From an uncultured bacterium (GTDB taxonomy: Bacteria; Verrucomicrobiota; Kiritimatiellia; RFP12; UBA1067), in contig CACYNF010000002.1 of the NCBI GenBank assembly GCA_902775595.1, forward strand, positions 3,390-67,389: a stretch of 64,000 nt of DNA, in the 5' to 3' direction. Positions 10,501 to 62,161 of the stretch are shown piece after piece (within the stretch, counting starts at the first letter, position 1; each line of letters opens with the position of its first letter). The notes under the pieces are model-generated. The model was not told the DNA's origin. It searched no databases and worked only from the letters and a program-made list of their open reading frames with translations. The position numbers were made by a program, and so were the translations under genes.

Positions 10501-10801
10501 TCTGCGCCGTTTTCGTGAGGCTCTCGAACGCCTCGCCCGTGGAGCCCGTCACAGCCTGGACGAGCCGCATCCTGTCGTCGAACCCCGCGAACGACCGCTC
10601 CGCGAGGACGAAGGGAAGCGACATCGCCCCGCCGAGCGCGAGAAGCTCGCGGCCGACGGAGGAGCATGACTGCGAGAACGCACGGAGCTGCGACTGCGCC
10701 TCCCCGAGGCTCTTGCGGAGCTTCGACGAGTCAGCAGTCACCTCGACGAACGCGCGTCCCGCCTTGATGTTGTTCGCAGCCGCCATAGCGCCTCCCTTCA
10801 T
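7538..10801 (-). CDS. phage tail tape measure protein (1087 aa)
   Basis: Size, Ala/Gly-rich transmembrane-like central segment, long coiled-coil C-terminal half, N-terminal TP901-type TMP-core-like region; position after chaperone genes. Confidence 0.8.
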   Translation of the reverse strand: MKGGAMAAANNIKAGRAFVEVTADSSKLRKSLGEAQSQLRAFSQSCSSVGRELLALGGAMSLPFVLAERSFAGFDDRMRLVQAVTGSTGEAFESLTKTAQRLGRETSFTAQQVADAMVALGRMGFDRTEIEASISSVLNLSRATGTELAESADIAANSMRIFGMEASKMTQVTDILTATANGSAQTLTDLFEGLKMAGPQAAAAGESLDELCAALGVMANMGVKGSLAGTALRKAYVQFADVKIQKILREVGVEATDSSGNLRRIADVMRDIAVATKSLPTAERLAFMKDVFDVRGMMSGMSLTKDVKELDAFLAKLKDVSGQADATAKAMDAGVGGSFRLFQSAVEGAMNATGEALNSTIKPMVERITAVINSFTKWIEANRGLVTSIAVTAGSIAALGAALLAVGTVSRVLSTGIGALSGVFSAFAGVQAALAGKGVLVQGAFSLMARAFADYRNAAIPAMVGTSRLLAALNLPIDSRAKQIAAGLVLMGNAEAAAAAKSAIASRFTAVTAALKGLNSATIAATVSAKAHAAAETIAGIAVKAATAAHVAFAAVGRALTLSHAKAALTAGVAATANVALAATTKVVAAGYLAASAAATAFCAIPITWILIGIVAALGGLCAYMASATKHTAELSDEMSKLREKGDQLRATDQLRMERLTQLAEKESLNNAEMAEAEKLANQLKGRYGDLGIEVDRASKSISLAADAQSRFNEAMKTQAIHQIEAEIAESRKNIRELEEESDSLTGAWVNIWNTVTFRMHKAAEDIHANGERIREEMAKIAEANRRMEAIMGGDEDALTGGKSEHEKLEEKVEGGRSERSASADEADGAAKKASDIERRLIRETRSELENEVSDIRELRDEYKALISTMLSYEKSKKDRDLEKIADLEGRLAEADATAERRIKVAEAKAKRKFDREIADLQESFDRTAEDIERRRSEGETDRRVEATLKDDAAAGMKMLNDLISQSKVAAASAKAEFRKALDDAQADGDVTDEEEARIRKAQDAYSLAEGLVDKYESKLRSAQEATAKQTSITKPQGTFYARAAQSLRGDRLEQRMLNATQEIAKHTKKTAELLKDGVGGGTMTFQ

Positions 10802-16112: not shown

Positions 16113-17517
16113 CTTCTCCTCCTTCGTTTTCGTCTAGCGAATCCTTCTTTTCGTCGCCTATGCCGAGCTGCTCCTTGAGGGCCTTCTCCTTGGCGATCTG
16201 CCTAAGCTCGACCTCCCAGTCGCGTCCCTGCTTGGCGTACTCTATCGCGAGGTTCGTCGTGTGCGACTCGAGCCGCTTCTGCTGCGCGGCCGCCTCCTTC
16301 GCGGGGTCTACGTGCTCCTGCCCGTCCCAGAACCACACGTGGCGGCAGTCGCAGAGGTCGACGTCGGCCGCCGTAGCGAGCGCCCACTCGCGCATCCACG
16401 TTTCGAGTACACGGTCGAGGACAACGGCCTCCATGAAGGACTGGTCGACCTTGATCGCCTTGTAGTAGGTCTGGTGGTCGAGCCTGCCGCTCGCGTAGTT
16501 GTACCCCGACGAATTCCCCGCTGCGATGTTGTAGGGCACCGAAAGACACCTCGCGATCTCGTTCAGCACCTCGTGCTTGAACTCGGCGTATGTCGTGACG
16601 GGCTGCTTGGGGTCGACCTGCGACATCTTCCAGCCGCCCGGCATCGTGAGGAGCATGTTGCGCTCCAGCTGGATCGTGTCCATCGCCTCGACCGAGTCGG
16701 CCTCGCCGTTCGCGGGGGCGTCCGTGTAGAGGATGCCAGCAAAGTCGGCGGCCGCCTCCGCAGCGGAGACGACCGCGAGAGTGAACCGGCGGAGGTGCGC
16801 GAAGAGCGGCAGCGCCGCCGTGATCTCCGGGATTCCCCGGTGCTGCTCGGGGCGGTCCTGGCGGAACACGTGGATCATGTTCTCCGCCTTGACCGTGACG
16901 AACTCCATGTCGAAAGCATCCCTCCCGCCGGGGTGGTGCTTCAGCACCTTGTACGAGACGGGGTTTCCAAATTGGTCGAACGTGACGCCGTCCACGCAGT
17001 TCGGATCGACTGAAAGCTCTGTATCCGTAACCCGGTCGGCTTCGATGAGCTGCATGTCGAGCGTCACGTTCGATTTGAGCGCGGGGTTGCGGGCGAGCAG
17101 GACGAACGCCTCGCCGTCCTGGCAGCGGGCCATGCGAATGGTCCGCAGCTTGGCGGGGAGATGCGTCTTCTTCGCCCACACCCCGAAGTCGTGCTCTATT
17201 CTCCTGTTTGTCTCCTCGTCCTCGAGGAGCATCTGGAGTCTTGGTCCCGTTCCAATCGTGTCCTCCGCGAGGGTCTTCACGATCCCCCTCGCGTAGGAGT
17301 TGTTCTGCACTTCGTAGCGGGCGCGCGTGCGGAGTATCTTCCTCACGTTGGGGTCCGCCTCGGCGTCCGCCGAGAGGAACTCCGCCGCGCCCCAGTGCTT
17401 TGCGTTGTCCTTCGTCGTCTGCGCGGCGTCGAAGCGCGCGCGCATCCAGCTGGCAAGACGTCCGCCGAGGCTCCTCCGGTCCCCGCCGCCCTTCTTCCTC
17501 GATGGCCAAAGTCTCAT
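16096..17517 (-). CDS. portal protein (lambda-family type), 473 aa
   Basis: Size, position between gpW-like and capsid genes, acidic C-terminus. Confidence 0.7.
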   Translation of the reverse strand: MRLWPSRKKGGGDRRSLGGRLASWMRARFDAAQTTKDNAKHWGAAEFLSADAEADPNVRKILRTRARYEVQNNSYARGIVKTLAEDTIGTGPRLQMLLEDEETNRRIEHDFGVWAKKTHLPAKLRTIRMARCQDGEAFVLLARNPALKSNVTLDMQLIEADRVTDTELSVDPNCVDGVTFDQFGNPVSYKVLKHHPGGRDAFDMEFVTVKAENMIHVFRQDRPEQHRGIPEITAALPLFAHLRRFTLAVVSAAEAAADFAGILYTDAPANGEADSVEAMDTIQLERNMLLTMPGGWKMSQVDPKQPVTTYAEFKHEVLNEIARCLSVPYNIAAGNSSGYNYASGRLDHQTYYKAIKVDQSFMEAVVLDRVLETWMREWALATAADVDLCDCRHVWFWDGQEHVDPAKEAAAQQKRLESHTTNLAIEYAKQGRDWEVELRQIAKEKALKEQLGIGDEKKDSLDENEGGEDGKDE

Positions 17518-17726
17518 AGTATCGCCCCTCCCGCAGCCATCTTGTCTATCCTGATCGGAAGACGCCGCTTCTTCAACGCGTCCCTCGACGCATAGTAGTT
17601 GAGGAGCTTGATGGCGTCCGCCGCCGAGTGGTTCTCGACGACCTGTCCGTCAACCTCCACCTTCCTCGGCGAGAGGAGGAGGTTCTTTGCGATTTCCTCT
17701 ATCTCGGATTGTTCCATAGTCGTCAA
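17514..17726 (-). CDS. head-tail joining protein gpW-like (70 aa)
   Basis: 68-70 aa protein directly upstream of portal and downstream of GpA terminase block as in lambda (A-W-B order). Confidence 0.4.
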   Translation of the reverse strand: MTTMEQSEIEEIAKNLLLSPRKVEVDGQVVENHSAADAIKLLNYYASRDALKKRRLPIRIDKMAAGGAIL

Positions 17727-18741
17727 ACTCCTTTCCGCTTTCGACAGCGTCGATTCGCTCGCCGACCCAGCGCATCATGTTCACGCACATCGAGTTGCCG
17801 CACGCATGATGCCTGTGGCCGTCTGCGGCGTGCTCCTTGCCCTTCCACGGGATGTCCGTCCAGCCGGGCGGAAATCCCATGAGAGACTCGGACTCCACGG
17901 GGAGAAGTCGCCGCAGCTGCGCCGGGGTGCAAACGACGTTCACGTGGCTGGAGCGGAGCGTGTACATCGCCGCGCCCGCCTCGTCGTAACACTTCGTCTT
18001 GAGATTACCTGTCCGCCCCTCAAGGTTCATCATGTCGATGGGGAAGCACTCCGCTTCAGGACGCGCTCCAGCATCGGCGGCATCGCGTACCCGAGCCTCG
18101 CGGCACGGCGGAGCAGAGCCTCCGCATAGCTCGCCGCCAAGCAGTACCTCTGCGGCGCGGGTCCAGTCTCCACGAAATCCGACAAGGATGACACGACGCC
18201 TTCGCTGCGCGACCGCCCCCGGAAATGAGGGAACTCTGGTATATCTTGCGTCCAGCACCCGCCACGAAACGCCGAAGCTTCCGGGCGCATTGGCGACGAT
18301 TCCCGAATTCTTCCATCCTCCGTCGGGGACTTCGACGTCCCAGCCCGCGAGCCTGGAGAGGAAGGTTGCGAAGTCGCGCCCTCCATTGATGGAAAGCACG
18401 GCTGGGACGTTCTCCCATACGAGCCATCTCGCGTCCGTCCTTTCAGCCAGCCGGACAAACTCGATGGTGAGGCTTCCGCGAGGGTCGGCGATCCCGCCGC
18501 GCTTCCCGCCGGAAGAGAACGACTGGCATGGCGTCCCGCCGACAAGGAGGTCGATTGTTCCATCGTAGCCTCCCTTCTCAATCTTCGTGAAGTCGCCGAG
18601 GTTCGGAACCTCCGGCAGACGGTGCTTCAGGACTTCCGACGCGAACGGCTCGACCTCCGAGACGAACGCGCAGCGCCAGCCGAGGGGACGCCATGCGACC
18701 GTCGCGGCCTCGATCCCGCTGCACACGCTACCGTACCGCAT
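17650..18741 (-). CDS. DNA (cytosine-5)-methyltransferase (363 aa)
   Basis: Motif I YGSVCSGIEAA, motif IV GGTPCQSFSSGG, motif VI ENVPAVL; start MRYGSV internal to track ORF; 3' end overlaps gpW-like ORF by about 77 nt. Confidence 0.8.
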   Translation of the reverse strand: MRYGSVCSGIEAATVAWRPLGWRCAFVSEVEPFASEVLKHRLPEVPNLGDFTKIEKGGYDGTIDLLVGGTPCQSFSSGGKRGGIADPRGSLTIEFVRLAERTDARWLVWENVPAVLSINGGRDFATFLSRLAGWDVEVPDGGWKNSGIVANAPGSFGVSWRVLDARYTRVPSFPGAVAQRRRRVILVGFRGDWTRAAEVLLGGELCGGSAPPCREARVRDAADAGARPEAECFPIDMMNLEGRTGNLKTKCYDEAGAAMYTLRSSHVNVVCTPAQLRRLLPVESESLMGFPPGWTDIPWKGKEHAADGHRHHACGNSMCVNMMRWVGERIDAVESGKEFDDYGTIRDRGNRKEPPPLAEEGGG

Positions 18742-18831
18742 GGCGTCCCCTCCTTTCGCTCTGCCGGCAACCTGCCGATGGCGGCTGCGGTGAAAAACAA
18801 CAAAAGCCGCACCGCACGCACTCGTCAGGAC

Positions 18832-18895
18832 AAGGGCCGCGCCACCGCGCCCCACAATAATATATACAACTGCCGAAGCAAAATAGTGAGAATTA
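18832..18895. repeat. conserved about 60-bp intergenic element, copy 1 (second copy 35408-35465)
   Basis: cccacaataatatatacaac(t/c)gccgaagcaaaat(a/t)gtgagaatta(t/a)ttttca present at both sites in same orientation, about 93% identical. Confidence 0.6.
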
Positions 18896-18954
18896 TTTTT
18901 CACTTTTTTGCGTCGGAGTCCGAAAGAGCGAAACCCCTGGCGGCCGCGATGTCA

Positions 18955-21243
18955 TCATCTCCTCATCCGCCTTAGCTCCGAGAGCTTCACCTTCGGCTTC
19001 GCCGCCGTCCTCGGCCTGCCGTCCGCCATCGTCCCCGCGAGGACGCAGCCGGACATCGAAGCCGCGACCGCCGCTCCGACGACGCAGTCCCACCAGTGGT
19101 TGTCGTGCGCGTCCGGGCGCATCTTCCACTCGTCGACGCGACGCCCGCGGCCCTCGGTCTTGATGCGGTACTCGGCGGTCAGATGCTCCGCGAAGAGGAG
19201 GTGGTCGTCCGCACTCCGCCCCCAGAGCGTCAGCGCCCCACGGTCGCCGGTCGCGGTGAGAAGACGAGTCGCAACGAACGACTTCCAGAAGTTGGTGTCG
19301 TAGACGACGTGCCTCACCGCCCGTTTGCCGCGCACGTTCGGCATCCGCCAGTTCATCCCCACGCGGTCGCCGACCGCCTTCTTGTACTCGCCCATCGGCT
19401 TCGAGCTTGCGCCGATGTAGCGGCCGTGCGACGGCGTGAGGACGGACGCGAACTCCGACTCGCGGCAGAACTGGTACACGGTGTCGGTGGACTGCCCCCA
19501 GTTCGCGTCAACAAGGCAACGCTCGATCCTCATCGCCGCGCCGTCGTCGCGGAAGTATTCGCGTCCGAGGATCTCTCCCGTCAGCTTCTTGAGGCCTTCG
19601 GAAAGACACCCTTCGAGTCCGTGTCGTGGAAACTTCATCTGCAGCGTCACGTTCGCGTCGGCGAGCGTGAAGAAGCGCCGGTTCTGGTCGGGCCACTCGC
19701 CGTAGTCGATGACGCGTCCCGTGAAGTCGTCGTCCCACGCGACGACGCAGTAGAAGAGCATTGTCTTCTGGACGTCGATGAACGCCGTCAGGTGCGTCGC
19801 CGAGACGGGGACGCCGAGCCGCGAGTGTCCGTTTATGCGCGACGAGACTCCGTCGAGCGTCAGCTGCTCCTCGGTGCCCAGGTCCTCGGCGAGCGGCTCG
19901 TTCTGGTACTCGGCCCAGAACGCCGCCTCGTCGGTGAGCTTCAGGTTCATCGCGTGCTGCACGGCGGAGAGCTCGTCGTGGTTGAACCGGGCGGGCCACG
20001 CCACGACCGCGCCCTCGTCCATCTCCGCCCTGTGCCGGCGGTAGAACTCGGTCGCCTTAAGGAACGTCCCCTTCTCGCGCAGCTCGTCGGCGCGCAGGTC
20101 GGCGTACTTGTTCCAGAGCGTCTCGTTCTTGGGGAACCTGTACACCATGCGGCAGCGCTCCCCGTTCCACTCCGGGTGCTTCGAGCGGTCGAGCATCTGC
20201 TCGGCCATGTCGCCGGGGCGGATCACCGTGCAGGGCATCACGCCCGCGATCTTCCTGCCCGGCCCCGCGAGGCCGAGGACGTCGCCCGCGAGGACGCGGA
20301 CGCGCTTCCTCGTCTGCTCGGACGATCCCGCCGACTCGCTCGTCTGCGGGTCGTCGACGATGACGAACTCGGGGCGGATCGTGCGCCCGTCGGGGCGCTT
20401 GTACTTCATGCCGCGAATGCGCCCAGTTATGCCGGCGACGCGGACGATTGCGCCGCTGGACGCCGCGCCCGCGATTGTCGGAAGCACGATCTCGCTCGCC
20501 GTCCACACGATGCGCGTCCTCTCGCCCTTGTAGAGCTGGCCCGCGCAGCGGTTCGCGATCCCCTCGAGGCGGGCTATCGGATAGACCATCTCCGGGAAGT
20601 CCTCGGCGAGATGCTCGTTGACCTCAAGCTCGGTCTTGATGGAGTCGAGCATCTCGAGGGCCGCGCCCTCGCTCGCACCGATGATGACGATGAACTCGCG
20701 GTGTCCGTAGGCCATCGCCCAGATAGCGGCGGTCTCCGTGAGCGAGGACTTGCCCGAGCCGCGAGCCATCGCGAGAGCGAAGAGCCCGCCTTCGAGGACG
20801 GCCTTCTGCAGTTTCTCGATTGCGCGAAGGTGGTCGTCCGACCATTCGAGGTTGTACACTTCCGGGAAGTAGGTCTCGCAGAACTTCCTGAAGTCGAAGC
20901 GGCACGACTCCTTCCTCTCCGGGTCGACCACTGCGGGAAGCTCGCCGATGTCGCGCCCCGCGAGGGAGAGGTCGGCCTGCCGCTGCGCAGCCGCCTCGCG
21001 GTGCGCTTCGTATGCGTTCGGGTTCGCCTCCGCCGTCTGCGGGGGCGTGTTCCGTTTGTCTATGAGCCACGCGGCGTAGCGGTAGAAGCTGAGGCACCGC
21101 GAGTCCTCCGTCGAGGCGATGCGGTAGCCCGCCTCCGAGAAGTGGCGGTAGACCATCGCGGCGGTGATGACCGTACCAAGCTCCGTGGAGTTGAGGAACC
21201 GCACCATCTCCACGGGCTTCATCTTTTTAACGTTGACCGTCAT
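18955..21243 (-). CDS. terminase large subunit, GpA family (762 aa)
   Basis: Walker A LAMARGSGKSSLTE, GpA-like size and architecture. Confidence 0.85.
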   Translation of the reverse strand: MTVNVKKMKPVEMVRFLNSTELGTVITAAMVYRHFSEAGYRIASTEDSRCLSFYRYAAWLIDKRNTPPQTAEANPNAYEAHREAAAQRQADLSLAGRDIGELPAVVDPERKESCRFDFRKFCETYFPEVYNLEWSDDHLRAIEKLQKAVLEGGLFALAMARGSGKSSLTETAAIWAMAYGHREFIVIIGASEGAALEMLDSIKTELEVNEHLAEDFPEMVYPIARLEGIANRCAGQLYKGERTRIVWTASEIVLPTIAGAASSGAIVRVAGITGRIRGMKYKRPDGRTIRPEFVIVDDPQTSESAGSSEQTRKRVRVLAGDVLGLAGPGRKIAGVMPCTVIRPGDMAEQMLDRSKHPEWNGERCRMVYRFPKNETLWNKYADLRADELREKGTFLKATEFYRRHRAEMDEGAVVAWPARFNHDELSAVQHAMNLKLTDEAAFWAEYQNEPLAEDLGTEEQLTLDGVSSRINGHSRLGVPVSATHLTAFIDVQKTMLFYCVVAWDDDFTGRVIDYGEWPDQNRRFFTLADANVTLQMKFPRHGLEGCLSEGLKKLTGEILGREYFRDDGAAMRIERCLVDANWGQSTDTVYQFCRESEFASVLTPSHGRYIGASSKPMGEYKKAVGDRVGMNWRMPNVRGKRAVRHVVYDTNFWKSFVATRLLTATGDRGALTLWGRSADDHLLFAEHLTAEYRIKTEGRGRRVDEWKMRPDAHDNHWWDCVVGAAVAASMSGCVLAGTMADGRPRTAAKPKVKLSELRRMRR

Positions 21244-21427
21244 CGCCCATCTCCTTTGCGACCCACGCGATGTACTTCAGGATGTCGACCGTCCCGTCCG
21301 CGTTGACGGGAGCGCCGGCGGCGACGTCGGACTCGAGCCGCTCCAGCGTGAGCGTCCTCGACCCCGCCCTTCGCATGGCGGTCACGAAGTTCTCCTTCGA
21401 GATGTGTTCGCGGTTCTGTTCGGGCAT
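21227..21427 (-). CDS. small protein upstream of terminase (possible small terminase/DNA-binding), 66 aa
   Basis: Overlaps TerL start; position only. Confidence 0.3.
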   Translation of the reverse strand: MPEQNREHISKENFVTAMRRAGSRTLTLERLESDVAAGAPVNADGTVDILKYIAWVAKEMGDDGQR

Positions 21428-21562
21428 TTCTTGCCTCCTGGAAAAAATAGTTGAAATAGTCGCCGGTACCCCGTTGACTATTCCTGGAATAAGAGCGAAT
21501 ATGTGCGCCGTTCCGAGTTCATGGTGGACGAGGACTCAAGACAAGGAAAGGACACAGCACAT

Positions 21563-22081
21563 ATGAGCAGCAATGCAGGAATCCGCGCGGGCGACCGCGC
21601 GTTCGTGAAGGTGGGGCGCAACCTCGTCGAGGTTCGCGTGAACGGCAGGGCCGAGGGCGGATGGAACGTCACCTCCCGCACCGGCAAGGCCATGACGGCA
21701 AAGACGCTCCTGACCGCCGACGGCGAGACGCTCGCCGCGCACGAGGCGGAAACCGACGCCCCCGCGAAGGCCGCGCCCGCAAAGGCAAAGGCTGCAGGCG
21801 CGAAGGCCAAGGCCGCGCCCGCCGCCCCCTCGCCGAAGGCGGTGCCCCAGAAGGGACTCTCGCTCCTCAACGCGGCGGCCGCCGTGCTGGAGCGATCCGA
21901 CGCTCCGATGGCGGTCAAGGGGATGATCGAGGAGGCGAAGGCGCAGGGGCTCTGGACGCCGCGCGGCGGCAAGACGCCCGAGCAGACCCTCTACTCCGCG
22001 ATCATCCGCGAGATACGCGACAAGGGTTCCGAATCCCGCTTCCGCAAGGACGGGCGCGGGCTCTTCGCGTTCGCGAAGTAG
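21563..22081 (+). CDS. DNA-binding protein: N-terminal small domain + AKA-rich histone-H1-like tract + C-terminal HARE-HTH-like domain (172 aa)
   Basis: AKAAPAKAKAAGAKAKAAPAAP tract; C-terminal ...GKTPEQTLYSAIIREIRDKGSESRFRKDGRGLFAFAK; only plus-strand gene in phage; TTGACT-17-GAATAT promoter-like sequence upstream. Confidence 0.55.
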   Translation: MSSNAGIRAGDRAFVKVGRNLVEVRVNGRAEGGWNVTSRTGKAMTAKTLLTADGETLAAHEAETDAPAKAAPAKAKAAGAKAKAAPAAPSPKAVPQKGLSLLNAAAAVLERSDAPMAVKGMIEEAKAQGLWTPRGGKTPEQTLYSAIIREIRDKGSESRFRKDGRGLFAFAK

Positions 22082-22083
22082 CG

Positions 22084-23109
22084 TCAGGCCTCGTATCCGA
22101 ACAGCCCGTTCCTGCACATCTCTGCGTAGACGGGCCGATCGAGGCCGAGGCCCTCTATCACGCGGCTCGCCGGATTCGACTCCGTGTACGTCTCCACGAC
22201 GCGGTTCTCCCCGTCGAGGAGCGTCACGCGGATGTCGCGGCTTCCGATGCAGCACGATATCATGCACTGCATGGACGGAAGCCCGTACCTCTTCATCCCC
22301 TCCAGCGCCTTGCGGCGCGCATACACGTTGAGCGTGACGTCCGCCTTCGTCGGGTCCTTCCCCCACGGGCAGCCGCCGCCGATGCGACTGTTGCCGCCGT
22401 AGAAGTCCACGACGAGCTTCCTGCCCGTCGTTCCGCAGTCGGCGACGGAACCGTGCGCGACGTAGCGCCCGGTGCCGTTCACGACGACGGCGCATTCGCT
22501 TCCGACGATTGACTTAGCCGCCTCGACGACCGACTTCTCGTCGTCGCCGGGCGCAAGCGGAATCGCTACGACGCACTCGACGGGCTTTCCGTCTACGAGC
22601 GTCACCTGCGTCTTAACGTCCAGCCCGCCGCACACTCCCGCTATCGACTGCCCGAGCTTCCGGGCAAGCCAGTAGTCCTTGGGCATGTAGCCGTATTCCG
22701 GCTCGTCCACCGCGTAGCCGAACGCCAGCCCCTGGTCTCCCCAACTGTCGCGGTCGACTCCCTGGGAGATGTCGCCCGACTGACGGGAGATATGTGTTTC
22801 CACCTCGACCTCCTCGGAGCAGATCGCGTTCGAGTCGCCAAAACGCTCCTGGTACTCGTCGGTGTAGCCGATCTTGTCGATTGCCTCCCGCGCGAAGTCG
22901 GCGATGTCCTCCTCGCCGTATGGGGCGCTGGAGGTAATCTCGCCCGATATCGTGCAGTAGCGTTCCTTGAGCTGCACCTCCAGCGCGACCCTGGAGCGGC
23001 TGTCGGCCTCGATGTACTTGTCGAGGATGTACGAGGCGATGAAGTCGCACGCCCTGTCGGGATGCCCGACCGTGCAGTATTCCGATGTCTGGATTTTCAT
23101 TGGTTTCAT
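22084..23109 (-). CDS. metK: S-adenosylmethionine synthetase (MetK-like), 341 aa
   Basis: GHPD, GDQGLAFGYA, DCGTTGRKLVVDFYGG, GGGCPWGKDPTKAD align to MetK signature segments; internal start MKPMKIQ. Confidence 0.8.
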   Translation of the reverse strand: MKPMKIQTSEYCTVGHPDRACDFIASYILDKYIEADSRSRVALEVQLKERYCTISGEITSSAPYGEEDIADFAREAIDKIGYTDEYQERFGDSNAICSEEVEVETHISRQSGDISQGVDRDSWGDQGLAFGYAVDEPEYGYMPKDYWLARKLGQSIAGVCGGLDVKTQVTLVDGKPVECVVAIPLAPGDDEKSVVEAAKSIVGSECAVVVNGTGRYVAHGSVADCGTTGRKLVVDFYGGNSRIGGGCPWGKDPTKADVTLNVYARRKALEGMKRYGLPSMQCMISCCIGSRDIRVTLLDGENRVVETYTESNPASRVIEGLGLDRPVYAEMCRNGLFGYEA

Positions 23110-23399
23110 TGCTGGTTTTCTCCTTGTGTCGCGCCCCGGAAGGAGGCGGCTTTTGTCAGATTTTTCGATAGTAGTCCGCAGGATCGTGTGCGAGTGCACA
23201 CAGGATCCGACAGAGCCCGCAGTATAGTTGTCTCCGGAGCTCCGCCGCGTCCGGCGAATACGGCGCTATACGGCGGAATACCGCCGATTCTCGCCGCATA
23301 TCCCGCCTAATCCCGTGTGTTTCCATACTGGTCTACAGTCTCTGGACGACTATAGTTCACACGTAGACACGCGCTCTACACGCCACGGAAGCACACAAT

Positions 23400-24041
23400 T
23401 CAACTGTAGATTGTTTCGCAGATGGCCACGATATGGCGGCACAGCTCGGCGGGCAGTTTCGCCCGGACGGCCTTGCCTTTCAGTCCCTGCGTGCCAGTCC
23501 TCGACCCGCGAGGCGCGGCGTCGTGGCAGGGAGCGCCCCGCTTGCACGGCGGGCGGAACTGCGGATAGGGGTGGTTCGTGAAGATGTCCGTCGGCTTCTG
23601 CCGCCTCTCGCCGTACTGGCAGTACGTCACCGTGTGGCGGCTACCGCCGGTGTCCTTGAGGAGACCCAGTATGAACGGCATCTTCCGCAGCATCCCGACC
23701 GGGTTCTCGACGAACCACACCTTCGGCTTCAGCTGGCGGATGAGGTCGCATACATGGGCGTTGACCGCGTCGCACCTTGCGGCGTATTCCGTCTTCGGAT
23801 TCGTTCCGTCTCGGTGCCGCGAGATGCACATGACCGAGTACGTCGTGCAGTCGGGGCTTGCCCAGATGACGTCGGGATGTCCGAACCGAGCGACGATTTC
23901 GTCGGCGGTCAGCTTCCCTATGTCGGCGTTCCAGTCGGGCTTAAGCGCCTCGCTCCAGTCCACGGTAAGCGTCCTGTGCCCGCGCTTCCTGAACGCCGAC
24001 GACAGGACGCCCGTCCCGGAGAAGAGCTCAAGCACCCTCAT
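23400..24041 (-). CDS. short C5-cytosine methyltransferase-like protein (213 aa, no obvious target-recognition domain)
   Basis: LELFSGTG (motif I), ASPDCTTYS (PC motif), VWFVENPVGML (ENV motif). Confidence 0.55.
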   Translation of the reverse strand: MRVLELFSGTGVLSSAFRKRGHRTLTVDWSEALKPDWNADIGKLTADEIVARFGHPDVIWASPDCTTYSVMCISRHRDGTNPKTEYAARCDAVNAHVCDLIRQLKPKVWFVENPVGMLRKMPFILGLLKDTGGSRHTVTYCQYGERRQKPTDIFTNHPYPQFRPPCKRGAPCHDAAPRGSRTGTQGLKGKAVRAKLPAELCRHIVAICETIYS

Positions 24042-25287
24042 GTGTGCTTTCCTCCGCTTCGGGCGCCGTCGACGTGTCGGATGACGTCTCGCCGGACTTT
24101 GGCGTAAGCTTCTGCCAGTCGCAGCCCTCGCCGTGGACGAACTCCGCCCACCTGCGGCGGATCACGTCGCAGTACTTGGGGTCGAGTTCGACGCAGCGGC
24201 ACACGCGCCCCGTCCTCTCGCAGGCGATCAGGGTCGAGCCGCTGCCGCCGAACGTGTCGAGGACAACGTCGCCTCGCTTCGAGGAGTTGCCGATCAGGTA
24301 GCACAGCATGTCGACCGGCTTCATCGTCGGGTGGACGTCGTTCTTCTTCGGCTTGTCGTACTCCATGACCGTCGTCTGCGAGCGGTCGGAGTACCAGCTG
24401 TGCGCCTCCCCCTCCTTCCACCCGTAGAGGCACGGTTCATGTATCCAATGGTAGTCCTGACGTCCGAGGACGAGCGACTGCTTCTTCCAGATGAGGCACT
24501 GGCGGACGCGGAGCCCCACGTCGAAGCACGCGCCACGGAAGTTGTACCCTTCCGAGTCGGCGTGGAAGATGTAGAACGAGGCCCCCGGCTTCATGCGCTT
24601 CTCGGCGCAGCCGAACGCGGCGCGCAGAAACTCGCGGAACTTCGTGTCCTCCATCGAGTCGTTCTGGATCGACTGTCCGTCCGAGCCGTGGTAGTCCACG
24701 TTGTACGGAGGGTCCGTTAGCCAGAGGTCCGCCTCGCCGTCGCCGCACACTTTCGCGACGTCGTTTGGCTGGGTGGAGTCGCCGCAGACGAGGAGGTGGT
24801 TGCCGAGCCGGTACACCTCGCCCGGCGTCGAGACGGGGATCTCCGGCGTCTCGGGGACGGCGTCCGGCTCGGTCTCGCCGTGCGTACCCGCCTCGCCGCC
24901 GAGGAGGTCGTCCAGCTCGTCGTCGCCAAAAGCGAGCAGCGAAAGGTCGAACCCCGCCTCCTGCAAAGCGGACAGCTCGACCTTCAGCTTGTCCTCGTCC
25001 CACTCGGCGATCTCCGCGATCTTGTTGTCCGCGATCCTGAGCGCCTGCTCCTGCTCCGGCGTGAGGTCCGTCGCGATGATGCACGGCATCGTCTCCCAGC
25101 CGAGCTTCTTCACCGCGAGAAGCCGCGTGTGTCCCTCGATGATGACCTTGTCCTTGTTGAGGACGGCGGGGTTCCTGAAGCCGAGCTTCTCGATTATGTT
25201 CGCGAGCTGCTCGACCGCTCCCTCGTTGATCCTGGGGTTGTTCTCGTATGGAACGATCTCCGACACGGGGACGTTCACGATTTTCAT
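24028..25287 (-). CDS. ParB-like N-terminal domain fused to N6-adenine/N4-cytosine DNA methyltransferase (419 aa)
   Basis: N-terminal VPVSEIVPYENNPR ParB-type box; TDPPYN catalytic motif; C-terminal DTFGGSGST. Confidence 0.75.
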   Translation of the reverse strand: MKIVNVPVSEIVPYENNPRINEGAVEQLANIIEKLGFRNPAVLNKDKVIIEGHTRLLAVKKLGWETMPCIIATDLTPEQEQALRIADNKIAEIAEWDEDKLKVELSALQEAGFDLSLLAFGDDELDDLLGGEAGTHGETEPDAVPETPEIPVSTPGEVYRLGNHLLVCGDSTQPNDVAKVCGDGEADLWLTDPPYNVDYHGSDGQSIQNDSMEDTKFREFLRAAFGCAEKRMKPGASFYIFHADSEGYNFRGACFDVGLRVRQCLIWKKQSLVLGRQDYHWIHEPCLYGWKEGEAHSWYSDRSQTTVMEYDKPKKNDVHPTMKPVDMLCYLIGNSSKRGDVVLDTFGGSGSTLIACERTGRVCRCVELDPKYCDVIRRRWAEFVHGEGCDWQKLTPKSGETSSDTSTAPEAEESTHEGA

Positions 25288-25303
25288 CCTGCTCGTTTCC
25301 ATC

Positions 25304-27193
25304 TCAATTCTCCTCTGTGTGTTTCATGTCGTAGTTCTGGATTCGCTGGCATATCCAGCGGGCGCAGTTGACCGCCCATCCGTTTCCGAGCGCCTTGTAC
25401 CTCGGCGTGTCGGGGCAGTCCTCCGCGCTCTTCCCGCGATACGGGATCTTCGTGTATCCGTCCGGGAGTCCCTGGAGCCTTTCGCATTCGAGCGGCGTCA
25501 GCCGCCGGACGATGTAGTCAATGGCGACGGCGAGGAGGTTGTCGCCCATGTCGGAGCGGAGCGTCGACGCCAGCTCGGACATGAATCTGTGCAACGCCCC
25601 TTCGCGCCTCGCTATCCCCGGCTCGAAAGAGACCGCGCCGGGACCCTTGGCGACCACCGTCGGCGCGCACTCCTCCTCGACAGTGAAGCCGAACTGCGCG
25701 TTCCTCCCCTGGTTGAAGGACGCGCGGTCGAGCCCGATTGCCACGGCGTGCGGATCGGTCCCGTGCGCCGCGAGAATCGTAGGGGACGCGCCGCTCGTGT
25801 CGGTACCGGCCCCCGTCTTTCTCGCGCCCATGTCGAACACGCCGACGACCTCCTCGACGACCGCCGTTCCGCCCTGGTGCTTCACGGGTGCGGAATCGAC
25901 AGTCGTCAATGTAGGAGCGCACTCGACCTCGCGGCATCCGCTCTTCGGGTTCTTCGACTTCATCGCGTTCGACCCCATTGAGTCGATTGCGTATGCGACC
26001 GCGTGCTGGTCGCGCGCTGTCAGCGTATAGGACGCGCCTTTCTCCGAGACGCCGAACCCAGCGCCGCCCTTCCGGACGGGCTTGTCGGCGTTCGTCGGCT
26101 TGTTCTTGTCCATGTCGATTGCGACTACGGCGTCGGTCGGCACGACGACGAGCGGGTTGTTGTTCGCCGCCTGCGCGTTGTGGGTAGCGCCCATAGTCGG
26201 GGCGACATCGACCTGCACGGTCCTCGCGTCCGTCTGGTGGTTCTCGAAGCATACGGCGTTGTGGTAGCCGGGCGACGATCCGTTGACGAGCGCCCCGCTC
26301 ACCTCGGGGCTCGCAGTCTTGACGCCGCCCGGCTCGTAGGGGTCGAAGCCGGACGGCTGCATGACGAACACCCCCGACCTGTCGGCCTGCCCCGTGAGGC
26401 GCTTCGTCAGGTCGGTGGCGTTCAGCGTCGGCATCACGTCTCCGCCGTTTGCGTTCGTCGGAACCGCGCGATCTGCGCCAGCAGAGCCGCCTTGAGGCGG
26501 ACGGGTAAATCCTTGCCCCGTGATGCGGCGCGGCGCAGTATCCCCGCGCACGCCTTGAGGCTCAAACAGTATTTCCGCAGGTGCTCGCCAACCGTCTCCA
26601 GTATGTCCGACAGTCCGCATACCGACGAGCCAAACTCTCCTTCTGCGCTGCGGAACCGCTCTGGGCAGCCCGTCCACTCGCACGTACTGAGCGTCCAGAG
26701 TCCGGTAGGCAAGAGAATACCCGCATTCCCCAATCGAGCGGACGAAGTGCGCGAAGTCGCGCCCTCCGTTGCTGGTGAGAACTCCCGGCACGTTCTCCCA
26801 AAGTACCCATCGAGGTTGTAGCTCACGACAAAGTCGCGCAAAGTGGAAGGCAAGGGAGCTGCGGGTGCCGCTTCCCTCCGCCATGCCTTTCCTCTTCCCC
26901 GCGACCGACACGTCCTGGCACGGCGTGCCGCCGGCGAGGACGCCGAGACGCCCGGCAAGTTCAATGACATCTGTTCCATTCGTTATCCTCCATTTCTCGT
27001 CGCCGACCATCTCGGCTGTGATCTTCGTCATGTCCCCGAGGTTCGGAACCTCGGGGTATCTGTGCGCCAGAAGCGAACACGGGAACGGCTCGATCTCCGA
27101 AAAGAAGACGGGCCTCCATCCTCCGAGCGGCGTCACCGCCGCGCTCATGCACTCTATCCCGCTGCACACCGTCGCGTATGTAAGTTCCTTCAC
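25304..27193 (-). CDS. DNA (cytosine-5)-methyltransferase with large variable region (629 aa)
   Basis: ATVCSGIECMSAA, GGTPCQDVSVAG, WENVPGV, C-terminal ALGNGWAV; GTG start preceded by AAGGAG and overlapping upstream stop (GTGA). Confidence 0.8.
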   Translation of the reverse strand: MKELTYATVCSGIECMSAAVTPLGGWRPVFFSEIEPFPCSLLAHRYPEVPNLGDMTKITAEMVGDEKWRITNGTDVIELAGRLGVLAGGTPCQDVSVAGKRKGMAEGSGTRSSLAFHFARLCRELQPRWVLWENVPGVLTSNGGRDFAHFVRSIGECGYSLAYRTLDAQYVRVDGLPRAVPQRRRRVWLVGMRTVGHTGDGWRAPAEILFEPQGVRGDTAPRRITGQGFTRPPQGGSAGADRAVPTNANGGDVMPTLNATDLTKRLTGQADRSGVFVMQPSGFDPYEPGGVKTASPEVSGALVNGSSPGYHNAVCFENHQTDARTVQVDVAPTMGATHNAQAANNNPLVVVPTDAVVAIDMDKNKPTNADKPVRKGGAGFGVSEKGASYTLTARDQHAVAYAIDSMGSNAMKSKNPKSGCREVECAPTLTTVDSAPVKHQGGTAVVEEVVGVFDMGARKTGAGTDTSGASPTILAAHGTDPHAVAIGLDRASFNQGRNAQFGFTVEEECAPTVVAKGPGAVSFEPGIARREGALHRFMSELASTLRSDMGDNLLAVAIDYIVRRLTPLECERLQGLPDGYTKIPYRGKSAEDCPDTPRYKALGNGWAVNCARWICQRIQNYDMKHTEEN

Positions 27194-27807
27194 GATTTCT
27201 CCTTCCGTTTTTCCATGTACCGTTTCGCGGCGATCTTGCCTTCGAGGATTCCCATCCTCGGCCTCCGGCTGCGGCTTGGCCAGGGGATGTCCTTGTATGT
27301 CCCGCCCCGGCGTATCCAGTCGACCACTGCGTTCGACAGCCCCAGCATCCTGGCTATCCGGTAGGCGGCGAATCCGTCCCATAGAAGCTCCTTGACCTCT
27401 GCCGCGAGTTCGTCGCTTATCGTCCTCCTCGTCGGGTGCGGATGCCGTGCGTTCAGGACGATCTGCGCCCCCGTGATAAGTCCCGTCCTGTAGGCATGGC
27501 GGACGTTGTCGAGGTGCGACACCCATTCGAGGTTCGCGTAGTGGTTGTTGAGCTTGTTGCCGTCCTTGTGGTTCACCTCCACCTTGCCCACGCCAGTCGG
27601 CTTTTCGCAGAAGCACTCGGCTACGATGCGGTGGACCGCCTCTGGCCGTCCGTTTATGCCGACCCTGTAGTAGCCGCCGCAGCGGTGTCTGCCAAGATGC
27701 GGCTTCAGCAGCCTGTATCCTTCCCGGTTTTTGTAGTGCATGCAGAACACCATCCCGTCCTCCGTCACGAGGTAGCGACCGGCATAGATTTTCGCCCGTT
27801 TTCGCAT
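27190..27807 (-). CDS. HNH homing endonuclease (205 aa)
   Basis: NHKDGNKLNNHYANLEWVSHLDN HNH motif. Confidence 0.7.
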   Translation of the reverse strand: MRKRAKIYAGRYLVTEDGMVFCMHYKNREGYRLLKPHLGRHRCGGYYRVGINGRPEAVHRIVAECFCEKPTGVGKVEVNHKDGNKLNNHYANLEWVSHLDNVRHAYRTGLITGAQIVLNARHPHPTRRTISDELAAEVKELLWDGFAAYRIARMLGLSNAVVDWIRRGGTYKDIPWPSRSRRPRMGILEGKIAAKRYMEKRKEKS

Positions 27808-27995
27808 GGTTTTGCCTCCTGAAAAATTTTTGCGCGAAGAAAGAAAGTTAGGTTAGTAGGGGGGCTCCTTCCCGCGCCCTGCCTTTGAGAGGGCTTTAGG
27901 GAGGAACCGTGGCCCCGGCGGGACATATCGTCCCGGCCGCCCGAGGCGGGTCGACTTCCGCCGCCCAGGGGCTTGATTTTCCTCTCTTTTGGCCG

Positions 27996-28025
27996 TTGAC
28001 TTGTCGCGCTCCGCTATGGCATAAT
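27996..28025 (+). promoter_or_regulatory. sigma70-like promoter on plus strand firing into the iteron/origin region
   Basis: TTGACT (27996-28001), 18-nt spacer, CATAAT (28020-25). Confidence 0.35.
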
Positions 28026-28099
28026 GTGACGCGTCGGCCACGCCGGGGTATTTTGGGGTTCCTTTCCCCAAGGTTTTCGTCCCCCGTCGCGGCCGGCGC

Positions 28100-28415
28100 T
28101 TTCATTTCGCGGATTTGCCGTTTTGCCGATTTGCCGTTTTGCGGCCGCCGTATGCAGCGGCTCGGATCGGATTCCCGTTTTGCGGGTTTTTTACACAGGG
28201 TATATTTATATACCCTGTAAAAACGGCAAAACGGGGAATCCCGACCGCTGCCGGGACAGGCAGACGGACGGTTTTGCCGTTTTGCGGGGAGAGGCCGCAA
28301 ATCGGCAAAACGACGGATTTCTATCTCAACCCGCATTTTCCGCGATTTGCGGGCCGACCGCAGAACTCCGCGCGCTCGTTTTGCGGGCCGCCCCGCAAAA
28401 CGGCAAAACGATGAA
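28100..28415. repeat. iteron array with central AT-rich dyad: candidate origin of replication
   Basis: At least 8 copies of TTTGCCGTTTTGC-like motif in both orientations (28112-28143 tandem, 28174-86, 28219-35, 28271-89, 28295-316, 28343-56, 28377-410); perfect 11-bp inverted repeat ACAGGGTATAT-TT-ATATACCCTGT at 28195-28218 inside an about 73-bp imperfect dyad. Confidence 0.55.
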
Positions 28416-28416
28416 A

Positions 28417-30501
28417 TCATGATTCCTCCTTCTGCTCGCTCCGCGAGCCGCGAAACACAAGCTTCACCGGGCCGTCGCCGAAGGGCGAGCCCTCGCCCCT
28501 TCTGCACATGACGTAGCCGTTCGCAAGCGCCTCGTCGAACACGCATCTCGCCTTTGTCCGCGATAGGTCAAAGGTCTTCTGTATCTTCAGGACGAAGCTC
28601 GTCTTCGGCTCCGGCTTACCCTCGTCCACAAGATCCGCGACGCGGGTCGCAAGCTCGTCGATCTCAAGGACTGCATCCGCGCCGTGCTTCGGCATCTTCT
28701 GCTCCGCCTTGCCAGCCAAGTCCTCCGGGCTGCGGTTGTAGTCGGGCACCATGAGCGGAAACGCCTTCTGCAGCACAATCGGCTCCTGGCGCGGGAACGA
28801 GCGGACGACCGCCTCCAGTACGAGGTAGCCGTCGTCCTTGTGTTCGCGGAGGATGAGGTGCGTGTCGGCGGCGCGCGACTGCGAGCCCGCGCCAGCGCCC
28901 ACGTCCGTTATCGACTTCTGCGACTGGTTTCCCTTGGACGTGTGGTGGATGAGGACGAACGAACACCCCACCTGCTTGGCGAAGGTGTCGATCAGGTTGT
29001 AGATGCCCGCTATCGAGCCGTTGTCGTTCTCGTCCGTGTCCTTCGGGAGGGCGCGGTAGAACGCGTCAATGACGATCATCCTGTACCCCGCCTCCCTGAA
29101 CTTCGGAAGCCACGCGGCGAGGTCTGCTATCGACTTCCACTTGCCGCGCAAGTTCCACACGTCGATCATGTCGTCCACGTTGGGAAGCGATGGGTTGACC
29201 TTCCGCATCGCCTCGACGACGAGCGGGATGCGGTTCGCGGACGTCTCCTCGTGAAGCTCGTTGTCTATGAGAAGCACCTTCCCCGGTGCGCATGTGTGTC
29301 CGAACCAGTCAGTCCCGGAGGCGACGCAGATCGCAAGCTGCGTCACCAGCCACGACTTGCCGGTCTTCGGCGCGGCGATGATGTTCATCGTCTCGCCGAT
29401 CCTGAGGAAGCCGTCGATGAGGACGGGGCGCATCTCCGGGAATCGCCTCTTGAGCGTCCCCAGCGGGATAGGCCCCTCCTCCGGCTGCGGCGACACACAT
29501 TGACCGGGGGCCGATGTAGGCTTCAGGCTGAACGTCACGCCCAGGGTCGGCTCCTTCGCTCTGCCGTAGCCAAGTGTGTGCAAAGCCGAGGCCGCCGCAG
29601 TGAAGTCGCCGCCATGACGCAGCGTCGCGTAGACCGCGAACGGGCTGTACTTGACGTTCGGCTCGAAGGGAGCGGCGTTCGACGAAAACACATAGAACGA
29701 GCCGTCCTTGTATGTCGCGGACATTCCGTTCCTCGGGTCCTTGCCGGGACGCGTCCACTGCTCGTTGCCGTCGGCCTTGAGGCCGCAGAACTGCCAGCCA
29801 GCGTCGGCGAGGAGCGGATGGATGTCGCCACGGGCGTTGAAGTCGTCCCCCGGCGGCAGTTCCCAGGCGTCCTTGCCGCCCGTCGGGGCGAAATCCGCGC
29901 CACGTTGCCCCGTGTCGCCTCCGGCGGGGGCAGGCGGGCAGTTTGCCGCAGGAAGCTCGTCGAGCGAACGTGCGGCGTCCACGAGGGCTTGTCGCGCAAC
30001 GGCGGTGAGGACGGGCAGTTCGGCGAAGTCCCCCTGCTGGAGGACGTAGCCCTCCGTCGGGGCGCAGAGGAAAAGACCGCCCTCTCCCCGCGTTTCGATC
30101 AGCGTCTTCTGCTTCCCGTCGCGGATGCCGCGCGCCAGCTTCAGGTTGCCCTCCACCGGCTCCTCCGAGCGGTAGAACACATGGTAGCCGCCGGACGGCG
30201 TCTGCTCGATGACGAGCTTCGCGAGAAGCCCGGTGTCGACCTTCTCCATCCACGCGGCGAAAAGCTCTCCGTGCTGGTCGAAGTCCATGCACTCGAGGTT
30301 CCCGGAGACAGCCCCTGCAACCACACATATCGCGTCGTGCGGGTTCGAGAACCAGGCGCGTACCTCGACCTCAGTCGGAAGCCGCGACTGCCAGTTCTTC
30401 CACGACCCTATCGCGGGGTGCTTCCTCGCCTTCGTCGCGGGAAGGCACGAGAGGCCTGCCGCGAGATACGCCATCGCCGTCGCCACGGGTATTTGAGCCA
30501 T
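28417..30501 (-). CDS. bifunctional primase-polymerase (Prim-Pol N-terminal) fused to AAA_25/RepA-like helicase ATPase, C-terminal winged-helix-like (694 aa)
   Basis: N-terminal LAAGLSCLPATKARKHPAIGSWKNWQ Prim-Pol-like; Walker A APKTGKSW, VLLIDNE. Confidence 0.75.
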   Translation of the reverse strand: MAQIPVATAMAYLAAGLSCLPATKARKHPAIGSWKNWQSRLPTEVEVRAWFSNPHDAICVVAGAVSGNLECMDFDQHGELFAAWMEKVDTGLLAKLVIEQTPSGGYHVFYRSEEPVEGNLKLARGIRDGKQKTLIETRGEGGLFLCAPTEGYVLQQGDFAELPVLTAVARQALVDAARSLDELPAANCPPAPAGGDTGQRGADFAPTGGKDAWELPPGDDFNARGDIHPLLADAGWQFCGLKADGNEQWTRPGKDPRNGMSATYKDGSFYVFSSNAAPFEPNVKYSPFAVYATLRHGGDFTAAASALHTLGYGRAKEPTLGVTFSLKPTSAPGQCVSPQPEEGPIPLGTLKRRFPEMRPVLIDGFLRIGETMNIIAAPKTGKSWLVTQLAICVASGTDWFGHTCAPGKVLLIDNELHEETSANRIPLVVEAMRKVNPSLPNVDDMIDVWNLRGKWKSIADLAAWLPKFREAGYRMIVIDAFYRALPKDTDENDNGSIAGIYNLIDTFAKQVGCSFVLIHHTSKGNQSQKSITDVGAGAGSQSRAADTHLILREHKDDGYLVLEAVVRSFPRQEPIVLQKAFPLMVPDYNRSPEDLAGKAEQKMPKHGADAVLEIDELATRVADLVDEGKPEPKTSFVLKIQKTFDLSRTKARCVFDEALANGYVMCRRGEGSPFGDGPVKLVFRGSRSEQKEES

Positions 30502-50625: not shown

Positions 50626-50627
50626 GC

Positions 50628-51560: not shown

Positions 51561-51561
51561 T

Positions 51562-57267: not shown

Positions 57268-57279
57268 GGCCCCTCCTCC

Positions 57280-58986: not shown

Positions 58987-59000
58987 GATAGAAATCTCAC

Positions 59001-62155: not shown

Positions 62156-62161
62156 GGCGCG

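Follow-up and report, generated by a model that had tools for sequence, protein, structure and literature searches.

A tailed phage or prophage residing in a 64,000-nucleotide stretch of contig CACYNF010000002.1 (assembly GCA_902775595.1; the whole of this stretch was analysed and is referred to as the window) carries a DNA-modification module in which four DNA methyltransferase genes stand together with the gene for a MetK-like S-adenosylmethionine (SAM) synthetase that is very probably an active methionine adenosyltransferase. We interpret this module, located between 17.5 and 28 kb of the window (Table 1), as a means for the pre-emptive self-methylation of phage DNA with phage-directed SAM synthesis behind it, and assign a probability of roughly 60% to this interpretation. 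About 5.8 kb and five genes are devoted to DNA modification by a temperate-type phage of a poorly studied phylum, its host probably being a Kiritimatiellia-type bacterium, as the labels of close homologues point to Kiritimatiellia metagenome-assembled genomes.

A prior sequence-only reading of the same DNA had listed four DNA methyltransferases, a MetK-like protein and an HNH endonuclease; we find all six on the minus strand, at the positions it gave, with database matches that go far beyond chance. Three of the methylase genes (those for Dcm2, the ParB-methylase and a 213-amino-acid mini C5 methylase) follow the replication genes, and the fourth, dcm1, is part of the packaging operon, where it sits between the large terminase gene terL and a small open reading frame (ORF) at the gpW position that is followed by the portal gene, a layout that the earlier reading had described correctly. 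The GTG start codon of Dcm2 (position 27193) and the HNH stop codon share the sequence GTGA, 5 nt behind an AAGGAG sequence, as had likewise been noted; the gap between the genes for Dcm2 and the ParB-methylase is 1 nt, and the latter overlaps the mini methylase gene by 14 nt. A scan of the genes at 17.5-28.4 kb identified no restriction endonuclease, the sole nuclease being the variably present HNH_3 protein. The four methylases are orphans, and the cluster has no cognate restriction enzyme.

The MetK-like SAM synthetase and its leader

The MetK-like protein contains the three Pfam domains of SAM synthetases (PF00438, 74.8 bits; PF02772, a partial match with 29.9 bits at a cutoff of 29; PF02773, 50.7 bits), matches E. 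coli MetK in the PDB at 1e-36 and can be aligned with this enzyme from end to end at 39% identity. The GHPD, GDQGLAFGYA, GRKLVVDFYGG and GGG..GKDPTK motifs highlighted earlier are all present. The sequence-only reading had conceded that its proposal would fall if a careful alignment revealed missing catalytic residues; in our alignment, whose E. coli reference sequence is consistent with the PDB alignment, the equivalents of H14, D16, E42, E55, Q98, D118, K165, D238, R244, K245, K265, D266, K269 and D271 are all kept, and E. coli F230 is replaced by a Tyr. In 28 members of the clade to which the window protein belongs (57-90% identity), every one of these catalytic or substrate-binding residues is invariant except R244, which is conserved in at least 90%. 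Members of this clade are about 340 amino acids long and stem mostly from metagenomes, some of them labelled Kiritimatiellia; compared with E. coli MetK, deletions in the window protein have removed a loop and a central-domain segment, about 16 residues from the C-terminal domain, and the tail at the C-terminus. An AF2 model (pLDDT 84) superimposes in Foldseek on bacterial MetK and human MAT2A with a TM score of about 0.8, and dN/dS ratios of 0.11-0.15 against three relatives indicate purifying selection. Collectively, the residues, the fold and the mode of selection predict that this MetK is very probably an active methionine adenosyltransferase.

The role in methyl-donor supply that had been proposed for this protein fits the intact active site, the methionine adenosyltransferase fold, purifying selection and the adjacency to methylase genes. 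The accompanying suggestion that the phage thereby counters the depletion of SAM by its host has no basis, as our literature search returned only the phage-encoded degradation of SAM by the T3 SAMase and no host defence that depletes SAM. The T3 enzyme, a SAM lyase, destroys SAM and inhibits MetK, and acts against restriction and BREX (bioRxiv 10.1101/2023.02.27.530186); it likewise manipulates the SAM pool of the host, in the opposite direction from the phage studied here, which would make SAM.

SAM synthetases encoded by viruses are known, as is their co-occurrence with dcm; the strategy is consequently an established one, of which this lineage is a new example. Viral metK genes have been catalogued, their conserved motifs, purifying selection and expression have been reported, and metK and dcm on the same genomes were described as 'connected' functions (Kieft et al., bioRxiv 10.1101/2021.01.05.425418); in the gut phages of the Ca. 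Heliusvirales, K00789 and K00558 are present in 58.9% and 67% of the genomes, respectively (PMC11283538). Matches to the window MetK were found in 131 phage records, 90 of them streptococcal, and many are annotated as SAM synthetase. In Streptococcus phage Javan575, for instance, metK is positioned just upstream of an adenine and a cytosine methylase gene, ahead of the terminase. The window protein resembles these Javan/phi1207.3-type and Heliusvirales proteins in being shortened, in its conserved substrate motifs and in the pre-terminase location of its gene beside methylases; however, it is only 31-40% identical to them and forms the clade of its own referred to above, and in the window lineage its gene is locked in a conserved block with those for a ParB-methylase and a HARE-HTH protein. 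PADLOC returned no match for MetK or the HARE-HTH protein. A profile search of genome contigs with canonical MetKs in the alignment recovered only canonical host metK genes (32-38% identity) and is uninformative on the host and on distribution among prophages; Helicobacter 'phage metK' matches were discarded, since they represent host metK genes adjoining a prophage.

The ATG start codon of metK is preceded by an AAGGAG sequence and by a spacer of 290 nt that separates it from the mini methylase gene. In the alignments with relatives, this leader contains two near-invariant blocks (83-90% and 71-88% identity, vs about 60% elsewhere), and it can form a hairpin, GGATCCTGTGT...ACACGATCC, as well as a long-range stem of 12 bp; its predicted fold is modestly better than that of shuffled sequences (z = -2.1). 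The stems are invariant in the relatives aligned, and these gave no evidence of covariation. A known riboswitch or other known RNA was looked for and dismissed, Rfam being empty at gathering thresholds for the whole window and at E<=5 for positions 21200-23600. A speculative possibility is that the leader is an undescribed regulatory RNA.

Four methylases of three types

Dcm1 and Dcm2 are C5 cytosine methylases that match PF00145 with 120 bits each (1.5e-34 for Dcm1) and exceed the TIGR00675 cutoff of 100.65 bits with 114 and 126 bits, respectively. In both, motifs I (FxGxG-type), IV (PC), VI (ENV), VIII (QRR), IX and X follow each other in the canonical order, and the signatures GTPCQ, ENVP, QRRRR, RRLxPxExExLxGxP and GN can be read directly. 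For Dcm1, a 417-amino-acid ORF with a GTG start was considered and rejected as over-extended; the ATG at 18741, situated behind AAGGAGG, yields 363 amino acids and agrees with an independent ENA gene call. Dcm1 carries a single TL motif and evolves with a dN/dS of 0.24-0.28.

The architecture of Dcm2 is different. Motifs I-VIII lie within residues 1-200 and motifs IX-X within residues 544-620, and between them lies a variable region of about 335 amino acids (205-540) with seven [APS]T[LIVM] motifs spaced 32-77 residues apart. By eye, this region resolves into about eight units, each starting with a short hydrophobic strand and continuing with 15-25 variable residues, xPTL, 8-12 further residues and AV. 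Orthologues in six related contigs are 699-750 amino acids long and, compared with the window protein, contain clean insertions of 31, 37 and 46 residues, the 31- and 37-residue ones bringing along a TL motif of their own (PTL or ETL). The C5 methylases of the Bacillus phages SPR, phi3T, rho11s and H2, studied by Trautner and colleagues, carry tandem target modules between motifs VIII and IX; the modules are exchangeable, and a Thr-Leu type signature marks every one of them. Dcm2 appears to share with them the layout of one catalytic core and a tandem array of putative modules; its number of units (about eight, and more in its relatives) however seems larger than in the Bacillus phage enzymes, and its variable region has no detectable sequence similarity to those of characterised multispecific enzymes. 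Relatives of this region are found in methylases of gut phages and of Vibrio phages. Its modular architecture makes Dcm2 a candidate, and probably a genuine case, of a multispecific C5 methylase. As the cassettes differ among close relatives, these proteins could be useful for mapping the rules that relate a target recognition domain (TRD) to its target.

The ParB-methylase matches PF01555 with 88.8 bits (cutoff 26.7), and its DPPY motif lies N-terminal to FGGSGST. Its ParB_N domain stays below the Pfam cutoff (20.5 bits, 4.9e-4; cutoff 26.3), and ParB-type PHROGs reach 2e-52. The earlier description of a DPPY methylase with a ParB-like N-terminus holds. The protein is a beta-class amino-methylase, probably of the N6-adenine type, and has weak matches to CcrM/YhdJ-type NCBIfam models. 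It has relatives in 367 deposited phage records, and its dN/dS is 0.09-0.15.

The 213-amino-acid protein belongs to a family of mini C5 methylases for which a search of 1.84 billion cluster representatives yielded 208 clusters (50% identity, E<1e-30), most of them with proteins of 200-235 residues. Bcp1-type Bacillus phages encode relatives with 50-56% identity, most of which bear the annotation C-5 cytosine methylase or DNA methyltransferase, and a relative with 33% identity occurs in Haloferax tailed virus 1. PF00145 covers only the N-terminal half of the window protein (23.9 bits, cutoff 22). The family retains the catalytic core: F7/G9 (motif I), P63-x-C65 (motif IV), E112-N113-P114 (motif VI) and Q142/K149/T151 (motif VIII) are conserved, and in 53 diverse members F7, G9, P63, C65, E112-N113-P114, Y140, C141, Y143, K149, T151, C166, C172, H173 and P197 show little or no variation, with Cys65 and N113 found in 52 and E112 and P114 in all 53. 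An Asp replaces the Pro ahead of the catalytic Cys (SPDC) in the window protein and in 14 of the 53, and is hence a tolerated variant. Motifs I, IV and VI and the lack of a TRD had been recognised before, and both points stand; that description was incomplete, as equivalents of motifs VIII, IX and X and a Cys3His cluster are present as well, a C-terminal helix substituting for motif X. No separate TRD intervenes between motifs VIII and IX, where only about 30 residues (about 155-185), predicted as coil, are found. They include C166, C172 and H173, to which C141 adds the fourth member of a Cys3His set that looks like a putative metal site in place of the TRD.

The AF2 model of this protein (pLDDT 95.7) has its top fold matches among the catalytic domains of DNMT3A/3B, M.HaeIII and M.HhaI. 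It shares with them the Rossmann core bearing the PC, ENV and QxRxR-type motifs; in contrast, their domains comprise 272-331 residues against about 212 amino acids, sequence identity is a mere 11-20%, and in the mini family the roughly 30 residues with the Cys3His set replace the TRD. Some mini methylases are interrupted by inteins (Hint/LAGLIDADG), which are inserted either around residue 63/64, where they adjoin the catalytic Cys, or close to motif VIII, behind residue 148 or thereabouts. Inteins tend to occupy conserved functional sites. Since catalytic residues are conserved, inteins are lodged at catalytic motifs, the fold is that of a C5 methylase and dN/dS is low (0.11-0.21), the 213-amino-acid protein is probably an active enzyme, possibly of low specificity, and neither a decoy nor a fragment. 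It may be among the smallest active C5 methylases. In one relative of 588 residues, weak, sub-threshold matches to B12-binding and radical-SAM domains are located C-terminal to the methylase region; this observation and those on inteins derive from relatives P0244, P0245, P0246, P0263 and P0306.

Conservation of the module, proposed function and alternatives

We compared the module with its counterparts on eight contigs from IMG/VR and on four others from metagenomes. Where the contigs are long enough, the order ParB-methylase, MetK, HARE-HTH protein (opposite strand), small ORF, TerL, C5 methylase and portal is kept while MetK identity falls from 98% to 57%, the C5 methylase occupying the position between TerL and the portal in all relatives and the gap between the genes for the ParB-methylase and MetK amounting to only 16-26 nt in some of them. 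More distant relatives lack the mini methylase and Dcm2. Hence, the syntenic block is the core, and the mini methylase, Dcm2 and the HNH protein are accessory. The low dN/dS ratios of MetK and the methylases are to be viewed next to those of TerL (0.06-0.08) and the portal (0.12-0.18). MetK, the mini methylase and the ParB-methylase have a G+C content at third codon positions (0.86-0.91) equal to that of the phage backbone and are therefore long-resident genes; lower values are found for Dcm1 (0.72) and for the N-terminal catalytic half of Dcm2 (0.71). In one related contig (L019, 3129-4630), an AbiEi/AbiEii toxin-antitoxin pair is placed between the Prim-Pol and ParB-methylase genes, and this slot, which in the window holds the HNH protein, Dcm2 and an iteron-like region, appears to be a cargo hotspot.

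Gene identities, catalytic motifs, folds, purifying selection and synteny over long evolutionary distances thus form the observed part of the picture, and from here on we infer methylating activity, target range, timing of expression and effects on SAM and restriction. After the replication genes, the unit encoding the HNH protein, Dcm2, the ParB-methylase and the mini methylase would be transcribed, followed by metK, and Dcm1 would be produced along with the packaging proteins. Phage DNA would in this way become methylated at many cytosine and probably also adenine sites before it is packaged, so that progeny DNA would enter the next cell protected from enzymes that cut unmodified sites. MetK would raise the supply of SAM while several methylases draw on it. 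An extension of this scenario, which we regard as speculative and unlikely, is that a sequence-relaxed mini C5 methylase and an eight-module, multispecific Dcm2 achieve near-global cytosine methylation of a genome with 65% G+C, the resulting demand for SAM explaining why MetK has been retained. Such a relaxed mini enzyme could then be the 5-methylcytosine counterpart of M.EcoGII, an orphan, non-specific adenine methylase of 349 amino acids that is encoded by a prophage and has no additional domains (PMC5778455, PMC7544214). M.EcoGII, a beta-class enzyme thought to confer blanket protection, serves us as a conceptual model for phage methylases of low specificity.

Several points weigh against self-methylation backed by SAM synthesis. 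MetK scores 158.7 bits with the NCBIfam metK equivalog TIGR01034, below its cutoff of 309.4, and carries deletions in its central and C-terminal domains; these deletions account for the sub-threshold score and for the assignment of the protein to phrog_1569, a family labelled 'unknown function'. The AF2 model is poor at residues 228-247, which form part of the active site. MetK is not required for methylase clusters of this kind, since many multi-methylase phages either lack an annotated metK close to their methylase genes, as does Javan117, or gave no MetK match, as did the Bcp1-type Bacillus phages. Furthermore, the conserved 290-nt leader separates MetK from the methylases and may subject it to a regulation of its own. 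Extra SAM would favour host defences that depend on it (type I and type III restriction, BREX), the opposite of the strategy of T3 SAMase, and a heavily methylated phage would be vulnerable to type IV enzymes; McrC-like genes are present in the same window.

A different view would take MetK as an auxiliary metabolic or lysogenic-conversion gene that serves host physiology (methionine and organosulfur metabolism, polyamines, AI-2, the cell surface), its proximity to methylases merely reflecting the usual pre-terminase position of cargo. Kieft et al. (bioRxiv 10.1101/2021.01.05.425418) indeed count viral metK among the auxiliary metabolic genes for organosulfur compounds, deletion of the metK gene of the S. 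agalactiae prophage 12/111phiA lowered aggregation and biofilm formation, with partial complementation from a plasmid (PMC8223999), and FP_Brigit possesses metK and no annotated methylase in the 13 kb inspected; a conserved leader of its own would also suit such a gene. The window metK, however, directly follows the methylase genes in the same orientation, its adjacency to the ParB-methylase gene has been held from 98 to 57% identity, and its direction of transcription ties it to the replication and late region and not to a lysogeny module, so that we consider this view rather unlikely. Slightly less probable still is that the methylases act mainly within the phage life cycle, in packaging marks, replication timing or regulation (cf. 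Dam at P1 pac), with the HARE-HTH protein reading the marks and anti-restriction being secondary. The fixed position of a C5 methylase between TerL and the portal in all relatives, and the conservation of two DNA-binding modules, the ParB-like domain and the HARE-HTH protein, beside the terminase would be in keeping with it, but the presence of four methylases, among them one whose putative target region is modular and changes quickly, fits diversifying pressure from restriction better than a fixed mark, and the gain and loss of Dcm2 and of the mini methylase as accessory genes is unexpected for an essential packaging signal.

Very improbable in our judgement is that MetK or the 213-amino-acid protein is non-catalytic, the former acting as a mimic that poisons or sequesters host MetK and the latter as the decoy or inhibitor that the sequence-only reading had envisaged. 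The score of MetK below the equivalog cutoff together with its domain deletions, the absent TRD, the narrow passing of the PF00145 threshold and the SPDC sequence could be read in this manner; all catalytic and substrate residues of MetK are conserved, though, both genes have low dN/dS ratios, and in the mini methylases Cys65, E112-N113-P114, F7 and G9 are near-invariant, SPDC recurs in other members and inteins have settled at the catalytic motifs. We give next to no credence to the idea that the HNH protein and Dcm2 stabilise the prophage as a pair for restriction-modification or addiction. The GTGA overlap would couple their translation, yet the HNH protein has no match in three related contigs that keep Dcm2 (L008, L013 and L014) and only a divergent, partial one in a fourth (L010), and it belongs to the HNH_3/phrog_59 family; a restriction-modification system was rejected on account of this variable presence. 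With PF13392 at 31.7 bits (cutoff 24.8) and phrog_59 comprising phage HNH endonucleases, the protein, present in some relatives and absent in others, is likely a mobile homing endonuclease that invaded the cluster and not a functional partner, so that its inclusion in an anti-restriction arsenal, as first suggested, is disfavoured. Pre-emptive self-methylation with its own SAM synthesis, our preferred interpretation, would leave the current understanding of phage anti-restriction unchanged; of practical value could be the compact MetK, the 213-amino-acid C5 methylase and the naturally modular, putative multi-TRD methylase as reagents.

Gene neighbourhood and further features of the window

Table 1. 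Features of the phage module and structural genes referred to in the text (positions in the window).
Feature	Position	Strand	Matches and remarks
Tape measure	7538-10801
Capsid gene with Phage_capsid_4 domain	14049-16112
Small ORF at gpW position, 67 aa	17514-17717	-	Stop overlaps portal ATG (ATGA)
Dcm1, C5 cytosine DNA methylase, 363 aa	17650-18741	-	PF00145, TIGR00675
TerL, gpA-type large terminase	18955-21243	-	PF20454 1e-24; phrog_38, phrog_15
66-aa ORF overlapping TerL start	21227-21427	-	Kept in all relatives
HARE-HTH DNA-binding protein	21563-22081	+	PF05066 4.9e-12
MetK-like SAM synthetase, 341 aa	22084-23109	-	Three MetK Pfam domains
metK leader, 290 nt	23110-23399	-	Conserved blocks and hairpin
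Mini C5 methylase, 213 aa	23400-24041	-	phrog_757 'DNA methyltransferase' 5.5e-36
ParB-methylase (ParB_N + N6_N4_Mtase)	24028-25302	-	PF01555 6.7e-25; phrog_498 1e-166
Dcm2, C5 methylase, 629 aa	25304-27193	-	PF00145 2.6e-34; TIGR00675 126 bits
HNH_3 endonuclease, C-terminal HTH-like region	27190-27807	-	PF13392 1.2e-7; phrog_59 1.3e-38

The gpW-position ORF is a real gene, as indicated by its retention in nine related loci with 22 invariant residues. An AAGGAG sequence stands 10 nt upstream of its ATG, and its overlap with dcm1 recurs in relatives. This overlap of its 5' end with the 3' end of dcm1 had been put at 77 nt; it measures 68 nt with the ATG at 17717, the likelier start, and reaches 77 nt only if a TTG start is assumed. 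The label gpW itself is tentative: the position between a gpA-type TerL and a lambda-type portal (Phage_portal_2), the size and the conservation are compatible with it, but no match was obtained from Pfam or PHROG even at E<=10, nor from PDB profiles, and an hhalign comparison with lambda gpW is weak (E=0.007, probability 5.5%, 21 columns). The 66-amino-acid ORF that overlaps the start of TerL has no Pfam or PHROG family match and is possibly the small terminase. The HARE-HTH gene converges with metK, only 2 nt separating the two stop codons, and diverges from the terminase operon; its product has an Ala/Lys-rich linker, and its position is kept while its sequence evolves fast (48-96% identity).

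The tailed-phage genome makes up about 41 kb of the window, is coded on the minus strand and includes a replication block of Prim-Pol/AAA_25, helicase, RusA, DUF669, AAA_24 and PD-(D/E)XK proteins. Past about 41.6 kb, gene content is cellular-looking or defence-related; the phage is likely integrated in the host genome, and no integrase was found among the window proteins scanned. The window matches the 68-kb metagenome contig ENA ERZ27280250 and several shorter contigs. In deposited phages, positions 17000-28000 have no nucleotide match and TerL has at most 30% identity over about half its length, and neither the phage lineage nor the host phylum has a representative among them. A scan of 17000-28600 for sigma-70 promoters and terminators yielded nothing above shuffled expectation.

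Within positions 1-41000, CTAG is seen once (about 34 expected) and GGATCC once (about 8 expected), and the counts of GGCC and CCGG amount to about 0.6 of those expected, a palindrome avoidance that exists despite the methylase load. The intergenic region between the Prim-Pol and HNH genes (28100-28416) is dotted with at least 12 occurrences of the 8-mers GCAAAACG/GCAAATCG, which point in both directions and flank the AT-rich palindrome ACAGGGTATATAAATATACCCTGT; it is a candidate for an origin of replication or an array of operators. An 827-amino-acid protein (2305-4788, minus strand), encoded where the tail region ends distally, contains nine Listeria-Bacteroides repeat (Flg_new) domains and may serve the tail in receptor binding or in the manner of an adhesin.

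Beyond the phage, a low-GC island (48481-59231; about 50% GC vs 60-66% around it) encodes MzaE/AIPR, MzaD/DUF4420, MzaC/Z1 and MzaB/HATPase_c_3, recognised by PADLOC as an Mza defence system, as well as a restriction-like protein with a FokI cleavage domain (55708-57267), a 568-amino-acid C5 methylase (57280-58986) and a small helix-turn-helix gene (59001-59231). At 60326-63973 (minus strand), a DUF2357 and PD-(D/E)XK_7 (McrC-like) protein adjoins a 603-amino-acid PADLOC match to PDC-M26A; this pair may be a modification-dependent (type IV-like) system, and as such would matter to a neighbouring phage that methylates heavily. Between the phage and the island lies the gene for a 1120-amino-acid BspA-type leucine-rich repeat protein (43497-46859), adjoined by that for a 217-amino-acid protein (47275-47928, minus strand) in which a hydrophobic, signal-peptide-like N-terminus precedes a ubiquitin domain (PF00240, 3.3e-25). 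By eye, this domain is close to eukaryotic ubiquitin, and the protein is reminiscent of the secreted ubiquitin homologue of Bacteroides fragilis.

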